Source of the DNA: Gammaproteobacteria bacterium
GTDB taxonomy: Bacteria; Pseudomonadota; Gammaproteobacteria; Eutrophobiales; Eutrophobiaceae
Assembly: GCA_047620145.1 (NCBI GenBank)
Contig: JBLHKO010000004.1
Coordinates: 1-58,306, forward strand
Direction of reading: 5' to 3'
Length of the DNA stretch: 58,306 nt
The position numbers were made by a program, and so were the translations under genes. This document shows, piece after piece, positions 54,029-57,861 of this stretch. Below the pieces are notes generated by a model, which worked only from the letters and a program-made list of their open reading frames with translations, did no database searches and was not told where the DNA came from. The first letter of the stretch is position 1, and each line of letters starts with the position of its first letter.

Positions 54029-54661
54029 TTAGGTAGACTCTTCCCCAGCAAGCACTTTTCTCTCGGATAAGACCTCATCAATCAATCCATACTCTTTTGC
54101 TTCATCAGCACTTTTGAAATTATCTCGTTCGGTATCCTGTTGAATCGTCTCCATTGACTGTCCTGTATGCTTCGCAAGAATCATATTAAGCTTTTCTCTC
54201 GCCTTCAGAATTTCACGCGCATGAATATCAAAATCTGTGGCCTGACCTTGAAAACCACCCAAAGGCTGGTGAATCATTACTCTGGAATGCGGTAAACAAT
54301 ACCTCTTGCCCTTGGCACCACCTGCAAGCAATAGAGAACCCATACTCGCAGCCTGTCCTACGCACATGGTACTGACGTCAGGTTTAATGAACTGCATGGT
54401 GTCGTAAATACCCAAACCTGCGGAGACAGAACCGCCAGGGGAGTTGATATAAAGATGGATATCCTTGTCAGGATTCTCAGATTCCAGAAACAAGAACTGG
54501 GCAATAATTACATTCGCAACATGATCCTCAACAGGCCCTACCAGAAAAACAACTCTTTCTTTTAGTAGACGGGAGTAAATATCATAGGAGCGCTCGCCTC
54601 TTGGGGTCTGTTCAACCACCATAGGGACAAGATTTAGAGACTGTATATCGTTGTTTTTCAT
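54029..54661 (-). CDS. clpP: ATP-dependent Clp protease proteolytic subunit
   Basis: [33 protein letters not shown]. Confidence 0.98.
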
Positions 54662-54715: not shown

Positions 54716-56014
54716 TTAATTCATTAATGCGTCAAACGCCAATTCCGTTTCGTTGACCTTGGCTTTATCTACAATCCAGGTAATCACTTCCTCCTCAAGA
54801 GCCAAAGCCTCTACCTCTGCCAGCCGATTCTTATCCGAGTAATACCAGTTAACCACCTCTGAAGTGTCTTCATAACCTTCCGCCGCTTTTTCAATCATGG
54901 TTCGAACTTTTGACGGATCGGCCTTAATTCCATTCTCTTTTATAATGTCAGCAACCAACAATTGCAAAGTGACTCTTTTCTCAGCTTGGGCACTATACAT
55001 AGATGGATCGCCTTCAGGGATGACACTTTCTTGAACTCCCTGTTGCAGCAATTTTGATTTGAATTGTTCATGCAACCGCGCAATTTCATTGGTGACCAAT
55101 GTTGAAGGCAAATCAATCTTATTTGCCTCGTAGAGTTGTTGCATAACGGATTCTTTCACTTTGGCGAGTGACTTCTGTTCAGACTCACGCACCATATTTT
55201 TGCGTACTTCTGCTCTGAATTCTTCCAGACTGCCGTCAGTCAGACCCATAATCGAGAAAAATTCGCTGTCCATCTCGGGTAAAACAGACTCATTAACGAC
55301 TTTGACATCCACTTCAAACTCAACATCTTTACCAGCAAGATCTTCGTTAGTATATTCCTCGGGAAACTTAAGCTTAAGGATTCTATTATCTCCGGCTTTG
55401 GCGCCCAACAAACCTTCTTCAAAACCTGCGATAAATCTTTTAGCACCCAATTCAAGGTCGATGTCTTTTGCATTACCGCCTGGAAATTCCTCTCCGTCAA
55501 TTCGACCGACAAAATCAATGACTACGGCATCACCATCAGCGGCCTCTCGTTCTACGGCTTTAAGTTTATGGTGTTGTTTACGCAACACTTCTATCATCTT
55601 ATCGACATCATCATCTGAGACCTTGCATACAGATTTTTCTATGGTGAGGTCTTCTATGGGAGATAACTTTATTTCAGGCATAACTTCTATTTTTGCCGTG
55701 AATACCAGGCCCTCAGTTTGATTAGCATCAAAATCTTCCAGCTCGGGTCTGCTAGCAGGCTGTAATTTTTCTTGTATAATCGCTTCAAACAAACTGTTTT
55801 GCAAAACTTCACCGACGACTTCCTGGCGAACCTTCGGCCCATATTGTTTTTCAACGACTTTCAGAGGCACCTTGCCTTGACGAAAACCCTTGATCCGCGT
55901 TGTCTTTACCATCGACGTCAATCTTTTCTGTACTTCGGTGGCAATCTTTTCTTCCGGCACTTCTACTTTTAAACGTCTTTCCAAAGGTCCGGTAGATTCA
56001 ACTGATACTTGCAT
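54716..56014 (-). CDS. tig: Trigger factor
   Basis: MQVSVESTGPLERRL, GFRQGKVP, FKBP domain (FIAGFEEGL). Start placed at 56014. Confidence 0.96.
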   Translation of the reverse strand: MQVSVESTGPLERRLKVEVPEEKIATEVQKRLTSMVKTTRIKGFRQGKVPLKVVEKQYGPKVRQEVVGEVLQNSLFEAIIQEKLQPASRPELEDFDANQTEGLVFTAKIEVMPEIKLSPIEDLTIEKSVCKVSDDDVDKMIEVLRKQHHKLKAVEREAADGDAVVIDFVGRIDGEEFPGGNAKDIDLELGAKRFIAGFEEGLLGAKAGDNRILKLKFPEEYTNEDLAGKDVEFEVDVKVVNESVLPEMDSEFFSIMGLTDGSLEEFRAEVRKNMVRESEQKSLAKVKESVMQQLYEANKIDLPSTLVTNEIARLHEQFKSKLLQQGVQESVIPEGDPSMYSAQAEKRVTLQLLVADIIKENGIKADPSKVRTMIEKAAEGYEDTSEVVNWYYSDKNRLAEVEALALEEEVITWIVDKAKVNETELAFDALMN

Positions 56015-56107: not shown

Positions 56108-56192
<85 letters not shown>

Positions 56193-56443
56193 AAAGGGCA
56201 ATCGAAACAACATCTTCGTTATTAATGTCTGAGGATGAAGCGCGGCTATTATAAGGCTCGAACTATGCTTTGTAACCCCCAATCAAGATATTCATAGAGA
56301 TGATAGCCTGATCGGATAACTAATTGTTTTTCATAATGATAATAAGGACGAACATTAGGTAAAGAGGTCTTATAGAAAAAATAAAAAACGACGAAAGTCG
56401 TCAAATAACCGTTTAAGGACAGATTAAATTGTGTTGGTGAACT

Positions 56444-56818
56444 CTAGATGCACTCTTGTCCGAATGATTTACACATCCTACGACACTTTCGTTGTCCTGT
56501 TTTAGGGTTGATAATGCAATCTCGACCCCACTCATCACAAACAGTGACGCACTTCTTCTCTTTGTCCTGATCTTCACTTGCACCGGGAATAACTAAATCA
56601 CCTGCGCTAGGTTGCACAGCCAAACTTGACTCACTCTCATTTCCAGCGAGAACCTGATGTACCAATAGAGATTCATCAAGATCTGATATTCCTGACATTT
56701 CAAATCTTTGCGTCTCATGGATGCCATCCGTATCGGTCACAGCAACCACCGGCATAGTGCTAAGGATGGCGACACATAAAACTAGAAATTTTGGTAAGGT
56801 TTTCACAAAATAACTCAT
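56444..56818 (-). CDS. Secreted protein with acidic middle region and C-terminal six-Cys domain
   Basis: Signal-like MSYFVKTLPKFLVLCVAILSTMPVVA; C-terminus CVTVCDEWGRDC-x10-CRRMCKSFGQECI. Start moved from 56893. Confidence 0.7.
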   Translation of the reverse strand: MSYFVKTLPKFLVLCVAILSTMPVVAVTDTDGIHETQRFEMSGISDLDESLLVHQVLAGNESESSLAVQPSAGDLVIPGASEDQDKEKKCVTVCDEWGRDCIINPKTGQRKCRRMCKSFGQECI

Positions 56819-57021
56819 AATAGTTGAATAATTACCTACATAAATTGTCACAGACACATGTATGACTTGATGCTCATCTGATTGTTCCGACAACAGGACA
56901 TTTATATATGGTTTCCCCGGATAATGCCAGTAGACGATTCAACAACTTCAAAGCTTTTTCGGCTTTACAAACAAACGGCAAACTATCATTTATTTCGCAA
57001 AAACATGAAGTATCATGGCCT

Positions 57022-57660
57022 ATGATTAAGAAAGCCCAATGGAAAACCCTGTTACCAATTCTTGCTCTTTCGCTTGTGGTCACAGGAAATAGTGCCGCAA
57101 ACGACACTGAAGAAAAGATCATTTCTCCACAGCCAAATCAATTAAGTAAGAAAATTAAAGTTGTCGAGTATTTTTGGTATGGATGCTCACGCTGCTATTC
57201 ATTCGAACCTCACATTGAAAAATGGCTGACTGAAAAAGCAGATTATATCGATTTTGTGCGTATTCCCGGTGCGCTGGGGAAAAACTGGCTACCTCTTGCT
57301 CGGGCATATTATGTGGCAGAAAAACTGGACGTCGTAGATAAAATTCACCGACCACTCTACGATGCTATACACAAAGACAAAAGAAAATTTAATGATAAAA
57401 AAAGCTTAAGGGCATTCTTCGCAGAGCGCGGTATTGAAGGAGACAAATTTAACGAATTATATGATTCCAAGGAAATAGGCTTAGAACTCGAGTGGTCTAT
57501 TGCCTTTGGCCAAGAATATGGCATCAAAGGTGTCCCTGCTCTGATCGTACATGGTAAATACGGTATGGGAGCCAATGATCATGGGAGTTATAGCAAGACA
57601 TTTGAAGTGATCAACGAACTCGCAGCACAGGAATATGAAAGCTTAACGAATAATAATTAA
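57022..57660 (+). CDS. dsbA: DsbA-family thiol:disulfide oxidoreductase with atypical CSRC motif
   Basis: Signal peptide, VVEYFWYGCSRCYSFEP, LARAYY, LYDAIH, GVPALIVHGKY. Start moved to 57022. Confidence 0.85.
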   Translation: MIKKAQWKTLLPILALSLVVTGNSAANDTEEKIISPQPNQLSKKIKVVEYFWYGCSRCYSFEPHIEKWLTEKADYIDFVRIPGALGKNWLPLARAYYVAEKLDVVDKIHRPLYDAIHKDKRKFNDKKSLRAFFAERGIEGDKFNELYDSKEIGLELEWSIAFGQEYGIKGVPALIVHGKYGMGANDHGSYSKTFEVINELAAQEYESLTNNN

Positions 57661-57670
57661 ATGGTGGGCC

Positions 57671-57770
57671 AGTCGCTATCGGCATCCTCGGTTCTGGCTT
57701 CCTGCTTCACCCTACCTCCTACATCCATGCAGTCGTGCCTTTCGCGACACTCGCACGTCCTTGTACATCG
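57671..57770. repeat. Intergenic dispersed mini-element built of CATCC-loop hairpin modules
   Basis: 57687-57735 matches the intI insert at 38/49 nt; extra ggcatcc and acgtccttgt modules flank it. Confidence 0.65.
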
Positions 57771-57814
57771 TATTGGGTCGCACCCTATCCGGCAACTTAA
57801 CTAAAAGTATTGAT

Positions 57815-57861
57815 TGGTGGGCCGTATAGGGTTCGAACCTATGACCTTGGGATTAAGAGTC
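57815..57861 (-). other. 3' half of tRNA-Lys(CTT); att site of an integrated element
   Basis: Minus strand GACTCTTAATCCCAAGGTCATAGGTTCGAACCCTATACGGCCCACCA. tRNA similarity stops 2 nt 5' of the anticodon loop; D-arm and 5' acceptor strand are absent. Confidence 0.88.

Follow-up and report, generated by a model that had tools for sequence, protein, structure and literature searches.

RcsF and LpoB of Enterobacteria combine a signal sequence or lipobox with a disordered linker and a small C-terminal domain; they carry no enzymatic motif and act by binding, and the domain of RcsF is held by non-consecutive disulfides that are made by the Dsb system. Two-stranded antiparallel hairpins braced by disulfides and bearing a basic surface are known from tachyplesin, protegrin, hepcidin and theta-defensin, which are processed animal host-defence or hormone peptides of 17-25 residues that evolve fast. 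Six cysteines are also found in the knottins, with the consensus CX3-7CX3-8CX0-7CX1-4CX4-13C and the connectivity I-IV, II-V, III-VI, while in the DsbL-DsbI/AssT and SrgA/PefA systems, whose DsbA paralogues serve a restricted set of substrates, an extra DsbA with an active site other than CPHC lies beside a candidate exported substrate that contains cysteines. The window analysed here, a stretch of 58,306 nucleotides from a gammaproteobacterium, holds a gene for a six-Cys exported protein (CYS; 56444..56818 on the minus strand, 124 residues and a stop codon) that has points of likeness to each of these systems. The protein has the same layout as RcsF and LpoB, but shows no sequence or fold similarity to them: its C-terminal domain is a 35-residue six-Cys hairpin by prediction, and in this lineage it appears to be soluble rather than lipid-anchored. 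We propose that CYS represents a new family of exported six-Cys hairpins carried on a disordered tether, which would act as an envelope binding module and be oxidised by the general Dsb system, and we would give this reading a probability of about 55%.

Translated from its open reading frame, the protein reads MSYFVKTLPKFLVLCVAILSTMPVVA, then VTDTDG...DKEKK, then CVTVCDEWGRDCIINPKTGQRKCRRMCKSFGQECI. The N-terminal segment MSYFVKTLPKFLVLCVAILSTMPVVA resembles a signal peptide (residues 1-26; 56741..56818, minus strand), with K in the n-region, a hydrophobic core and an AxA-like site; cleavage is predicted after V-V-A, AlphaFold2 makes residues 8-20 a helix, and homologues begin with AxA sites or lipoboxes. 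The middle region in the window is acidic, comprises 63 residues and ends in DKEKK, and the tail CVTVCDEWGRDCIINPKTGQRKCRRMCKSFGQECI follows the pattern C-x3-C-x6-C-x10-C-x3-C-x6-C with 7 K/R and 4 D/E. The original prediction had described this succession of signal peptide, acidic middle and six-Cys tail, charges included, accurately in every detail, and the internal two-fold repeat that it pointed out is real, CxxxCxx(W/F)Gx(D/E)C occurring twice and being kept across the family. Within the middle region lie an acidic, variable and disordered linker (residues 27-72; 56603..56740, minus strand), with pLDDT below 50 and with length and sequence that differ among homologues, and a short conserved motif, G-D-L-V-I-P-G (residues 73-79; 56582..56602, minus strand). 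The six-Cys domain, a predicted beta-hairpin, occupies residues 90-124 (56447..56551, minus strand). On the 3' side of the gene, the sequence contains a terminator-like hairpin with a T-run (56389..56403, minus strand), which is clear only in the window and in its nearest relative (L009) and less so in a few other loci; among the related loci compared, it is not a family-wide feature.

A word-indexed search returned 42 homologues of CYS, and a profile search of 1.84 billion representatives returned at least 135 clusters at 50% identity. The members all have 70-170 residues, with the domain at the very C-terminus, and each of the 163 intact members keeps exactly the spacing C-x3-C-x6-C-x(9-26)-C-x3-C-x6-C; the sole variable gap is C3-C4, with 9-26 residues and Gly-rich inserts. 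For the invariant residues, the majority-base fraction is 0.85 at the first codon position, 0.94 at the second and 0.64 at the third; for one invariant Arg, six different codons are in use. Since synonymous codons vary and the third position is the most variable, the constraint bears on the protein rather than on a DNA or RNA element, and CYS is a real coding gene under purifying selection rather than a chance ORF. This codon-position pattern led us to reject an RNA element as the source of the conservation in the 3' part; in Rfam scans, the window region and five related loci gave tRNAs only, with no leader or riboswitch near CYS.

Pfam and NCBIfam scans of the protein gave zero matches. A sequence-profile search of the PDB yielded insignificant matches only (eL18, E 0.43; an alpha-hairpinin, E 9.8), and Foldseek matched the hairpin to generic long hairpins of ribosomal proteins in the PDB (E >1; none at E <=0.001). 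All the members found bear the public name 'hypothetical protein' and come from uncultured MAGs, and literature searches on the Cys pattern brought up nothing relevant. CYS thus defines a protein family that is unannotated, unnamed and without a Pfam or NCBIfam model; it is a candidate new domain family and one suited to a small structural study. A few members depart from the common form. The homologue in G005 (L012, 5962-6273) has the upstream motif tripled (SGDLVIPSDLVIPSDLVIPG) and an altered C-terminus (…KSLGQKCHLIQ), and a further locus (L014) has the motif in two copies. In G030, the six-Cys domain is matched a second time (C1:228784-228984; E 2.3e-15), some 4 kb upstream from the regular copy; this match falls in a long open frame that contains two TGA codons, and may be a duplicate or a relic.

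CYS is present in 32 of the 37 genomes, and in 25 of the 27 genera, of the window's own GTDB family, mostly as a single copy. A profile search of 400 genomes of the class located it in seven further families; elsewhere in the phylum, the same type of search gave nothing credible, and the family is confined to Gammaproteobacteria. In the window and in 22 of 22 related loci, the gene order is (cysS), tRNA-Pro/Arg/His/Lys(CTT), a variable insert, CYS, tRNA-Leu(TAG) and tig-clpP-clpX-lon. The tRNA-Leu(TAG), located by tRNA search at 56108..56192 (minus strand), always stands between CYS and tig, the trigger factor gene (54716..56014, minus strand); tig and clpP (54029-54661) are conserved downstream neighbours. 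Two of the other families keep CYS in the tRNA-Leu-tig context and three have it near trmB-thiG. The neighbours shared across families are housekeeping genes only, with no common partner gene, and no partner of CYS can therefore be inferred from gene order. CYS is a vertically inherited, mostly single-copy core gene in a tRNA cluster, near-universal and strongly constrained in its uncultured gammaproteobacterial family. A RiPP precursor of the SCIFF type was also considered for CYS and rejected: the neighbours checked (tRNAs, tig, cysS, a response-regulator cyclase and other unrelated genes) include no adjacent maturase, and Sec or lipoprotein signals are present.

Structure was predicted with AlphaFold2 in two runs, one for the C-terminal 52 residues (22 sequences) and one for the full length (40 sequences). 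Both agree on a signal helix, a disordered linker (pLDDT <50) and a long two-stranded beta-hairpin with pLDDT above 90, and both leave the GxLxxP motif unstructured. In the full-length model, the strands comprise residues 90-103 and 110-123 at a pLDDT of about 95 and are joined by the turn N-P-K-T-G-Q. The length variation of the family and its Gly-rich inserts all fall into the C3-C4 loop, as is expected for the tip of a hairpin. A hairpin of a transmembrane barrel was rejected on inspection of the sequence in the predicted register, in which neither face of the hairpin is hydrophobic. In common with tachyplesin, protegrin, hepcidin and theta-defensin, CYS would be an antiparallel two-stranded hairpin with disulfide bracing and a basic surface; it differs from them in being a bacterial core gene product with a domain of about 35 residues and strands of 14 residues, and the direct-repeat spacing of its cysteines does not fit the simple ladder of those peptides.

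This spacing makes CYS a compact test case for the rules of disulfide pairing. In the register predicted by AlphaFold2, C1 faces C6 and C3 faces C4, whereas C2 lies opposite a conserved Phe and C5 opposite a conserved Trp, on opposite faces of the hairpin. A third disulfide therefore needs three-residue bulges or a second molecule. Bulges would give a pseudo-two-fold ladder, C1-C6, C2-C5, C3-C4; on this model, the third pair could be accommodated by such a bulged ladder, by an intermolecular bond or by a metal site. Among the 163 intact members, there is no variant that lacks a pair of cysteines, and connectivity can therefore not be read from natural variants. Mutual information over 174 domain sequences, a measure dominated here by phylogeny, scored two of the predicted cross-strand pairs, G/c3 and a1/d6, and repeat-equivalent pairs too.

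Two known scaffolds invite comparison at this point. Four of the five inter-Cys gaps of CYS fall within the knottin consensus, and pairing the equivalent cysteines of its two repeats would reproduce the connectivity I-IV, II-V, III-VI. The loop between C3 and C4, however, has 0-7 residues in knottins and 9-26 in CYS, where it is predicted to be the tip of the hairpin, which argues against a knotted connectivity; neither Pfam nor Foldseek matched CYS to a knottin family or fold. The alpha-hairpinins and twin-CX3C proteins (for example PDB 2m6a) resemble CYS in that each arm of their hairpin bears a CX3C unit, with cross-links at the ends. The only sequence match to CYS (E 9.8) is nevertheless insignificant, and CYS has predicted strands in place of helices and one extra Cys per arm.

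The position of C2 and C5, each beside a conserved aromatic residue and without an intramolecular partner in the predicted register, could also be taken to mean that CYS is a periplasmic metal-binding (Cu/Zn) or redox protein, in which cysteines, C2 and C5 in particular, serve as ligands, possibly across a dimer. We consider this distinctly improbable, given that the two residues point to opposite faces, that there are no conserved His or Met ligands, that thiols are normally oxidised in a periplasm containing DsbA, that no metal-homeostasis genes lie near CYS and that neither Pfam nor NCBIfam matched it to a metal-binding family. The same geometry might instead describe a cross-linked building block of the envelope, with hairpins joined head to tail through intermolecular C2-C5 bonds and Trp/Phe stacking into oligomers or a lattice. 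The C2/Phe and Trp/C5 pairs would be complementary on the opposite faces of the model, and a location in a tRNA cluster may mean high expression. Such an assembly is very unlikely in our estimation: the reasoning is purely geometric and starts from a monomer model, and a bulged ladder within one molecule explains the same facts.

The region upstream of the domain bears on the idea, contained in the original prediction, that CYS has the layout of a defensin-type precursor, with an acidic propiece, a dibasic site and a Cys-rich mature peptide. The linker is not conserved and ranges from about 15 to 65 residues across the family; 128 of 162 members have a linker with a net negative charge, and the mean charge of the domain is +2.4. 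The position before Cys1 is K or R in 104 of the 162 (64%) and Q or N in 49, and K stands at position -2 in 124, where it looks to be part of the domain. Across these 162 members, no conserved dibasic or other processing site was found between the propiece and the domain. The motif G-x-L-(V/I/L)-(I/L)-P, in turn, is present in 104 of them, most often exactly 11 residues before Cys1, and many distant members are lipoproteins with lipoboxes. With a variable linker, a basic residue at -1 in only 64% of members and lipoproteins among the distant ones, a defensin-like propeptide processed at KK is therefore unlikely. Nor did Pfam, or Foldseek at E <=0.001, detect a defensin fold or Cys pattern (CS-alpha-beta, beta-defensin), the model being a plain two-stranded hairpin.

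It could still be argued that CYS is the pro-peptide of a secreted hairpin peptide with an antimicrobial or signalling role, masked by its acidic part and cleaved near K-K or near GxLxxP. The distribution of charge fits such a precursor (an acidic linker and a basic domain in the figures given above), a conserved motif stands at a fixed distance before the domain, and beta-hairpins stapled by disulfides are a known shape of antimicrobial peptides. However, peptide weapons tend to be variable and to be accompanied by genes for export, immunity or a protease; CYS is a syntenic core gene, mostly single-copy and near-invariant in sequence, has none of these genes nearby, and so does not look like a peptide weapon. 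In 36% of members, moreover, residue -1 is non-basic; the domain is neutral or acidic in some, and lipoproteins are numerous in the family. We therefore regard the pro-peptide as a most doubtful alternative. What stands of the small, disulfide-stapled secreted peptide first envisaged is an exported and conserved six-Cys domain, almost certainly disulfide-bonded in view of its Sec-type or lipoprotein signal and of the DsbA, DsbB and DsbC encoded in the genome; its release at KK finds no support.

The envelope binding module that we favour would operate as follows. The CYS protein would be exported by Sec, as its signal peptide suggests, and in the periplasm its six invariant cysteines would be oxidised by the general DsbA/DsbB/DsbC. 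This oxidation would staple the 35-residue C-terminal beta-hairpin predicted by AlphaFold2, which would hang on a disordered, mostly acidic tether bearing the short G-x-L-x-x-P motif some 11 residues before the domain. The largely basic and conserved hairpin would most likely bind a conserved envelope partner without being an enzyme, perhaps with a contribution from the motif; the protein is probably soluble in this lineage, and distant relatives would carry a lipid anchor. Exclusion and architecture make a binding module the most likely reading, and a domain of 35 residues that is so conserved on a flexible periplasmic tether implies a specific envelope partner. These findings on CYS overturn no current knowledge.

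The gene facing CYS in the window, DsbA2 (57022..57660, plus strand), encodes a DsbA-like paralogue with a signal peptide, identified from Pfam DSBA and inspection of the sequence. As had been noted at the outset, it starts 203 bp from the CYS ATG on the opposite strand and is an atypical DsbA; its active site is CSRC instead of CPHC (C55-S-R-C58; 57184-57195, plus strand). It matches PF01323 at 1.9e-16 and 60.8 bits (cut-off 25.6), and on inspection displays a cis-Pro loop GVPAL, a hydrophobic N-terminus and an NSA|AN site; against the NCBIfam DsbA equivalogs, it scores 59-61 bits, below their cut-offs of 279-290. Judged by its sequence, DsbA2 is a member of the DsbA family and a divergent paralogue rather than the housekeeping enzyme. 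The same genome encodes a CPHC DsbA on contig C1, one DsbB and a DsbC; a second DsbB is absent from the genome, the single one lying on another contig. DsbA2 and a gene from the congeneric G001, both with CSRC, group together on a long branch within the genus, and four further members of the clade were found in metagenome contigs.

All six occurrences of DsbA2 found adjoin CYS, in two arrangements: in the window, L078, L079 and L080 the two genes diverge, and in G001 and L081 they converge. The converse does not hold. CYS has no adjacent or extra DsbA in any of the 22 related loci or of the 11 loci from other families, and the loci most closely related to that of the window (L076, L077 and G006) lack DsbA2. 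In L080 (951-1588), it is split into ORFs of 68 and 134 residues by a frameshift just before the CxxC, which makes this copy a pseudogene, and the adjoining CYS (295-591) is intact. In the tig tree, genomes with and without DsbA2 are intermixed. Since DsbA2 occurs only beside CYS, and CYS often without DsbA2, the link runs one way.

A dedicated oxidase-substrate pair, in which the CSRC enzyme would have the six-Cys hairpin as its special folding substrate, in this lineage if not elsewhere, is accordingly a reading that has to be weighed, and it is the one with which the original prediction began. The adjacency of all six clade members in either orientation speaks for it, as do the atypical CSRC site, kept within a clade that sits on a long branch, and the C1-C6 and C3-C4 pairs of the model, which are non-consecutive and could be a hard case for an ordinary DsbA. 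We nevertheless consider it unlikely: CYS does without DsbA2 in the 22 related loci, in seven other families and in the three closest relatives named above, it is intact beside a frameshifted DsbA2 in L080, there is no second DsbB as in DsbL-DsbI, and one insertion followed by local rearrangement explains the adjacency by descent. The likeness to DsbL-DsbI/AssT and SrgA/PefA is thus limited to the presence of an extra non-CPHC DsbA beside a candidate substrate. DsbA2 has no paired DsbB paralogue, and CYS is far older and more widespread than DsbA2, which has repeatedly been lost or broken. The search for co-occurrence of the six-Cys homologues with dsbA consequently speaks against an oxidase of their own, and the notion of a self-contained disulfide-peptide system is mostly not borne out.

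As the sequences have it, DsbA2 is an accessory gene that arose at the level of the genus by duplication of the housekeeping DsbA, and the CYS family as a whole would be independent of it. The simplest account is one duplication into a hot spot beside CYS, followed by local rearrangement, repeated loss and perhaps recombination; the CSRC DsbA would have landed beside CYS once and since been kept, moved, lost or broken by lineage. It can be regarded as a natural experiment on the rise and decay of extra oxidases. With regard to recombination, L078 and G001 (locus L057) have near-identical tig proteins that are sisters, and their DsbA2 types differ: L078 carries the module of the window type, with a divergent DsbA2 at 87% identity and an identical Cys domain, and G001 the convergent type at 63%. 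The comparison suggests that the DsbA2/CYS module was exchanged by recombination. A bolder combination, in which CYS would form intermolecular disulfide assemblies, DsbA2 would be their co-evolved catalyst and the hairpin and oxidase would pass between species as one module, seems to us quite unlikely.

The hot spot itself is the stretch from tRNA-Lys to CYS, an insertion site that is hypervariable among the loci compared (L009-L030, L057, L076, L077). Some genomes have nothing in this interval; others have small ORFs there, a TetR gene, a gene resembling hemolysin III or a gene for a response regulator plus adenylate/guanylate cyclase. The window has DsbA2 at this place, followed by a 47-nt 3' fragment of tRNA-Lys(CTT) (57815..57861, minus strand; 100% identity to the 3' part of the tRNA-Lys of L009), which marks the variable insertion site upstream of CYS, and then an integrase. 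ARAGORN did not find a whole tRNA at 57815..57861, and an intact tRNA-Lys is absent from the window. The N-terminus of the integrase, past the fragment, runs off the end of the contig (57815-58306), and this segment has the appearance of one border of an element that inserted at tRNA-Lys. Between the DsbA2 stop codon and the fragment, the spacer (57661-57800) opens with TGGTGGGCC, a repeat of the tRNA fragment's 3' end.

The housekeeping DsbA of this genome (G000:C1:49685-50221) and its relatives in the genus (L060-L068) have CPHC or CSHC at the active site. G003, G008 and G009 have a housekeeping DsbA without a lipoprotein-type N-terminus; most genomes of the genus, this one included, have one with it (…LSACSD…), and the enzyme therefore appears to be membrane-anchored, as are DsbA1/2 of Neisseria.
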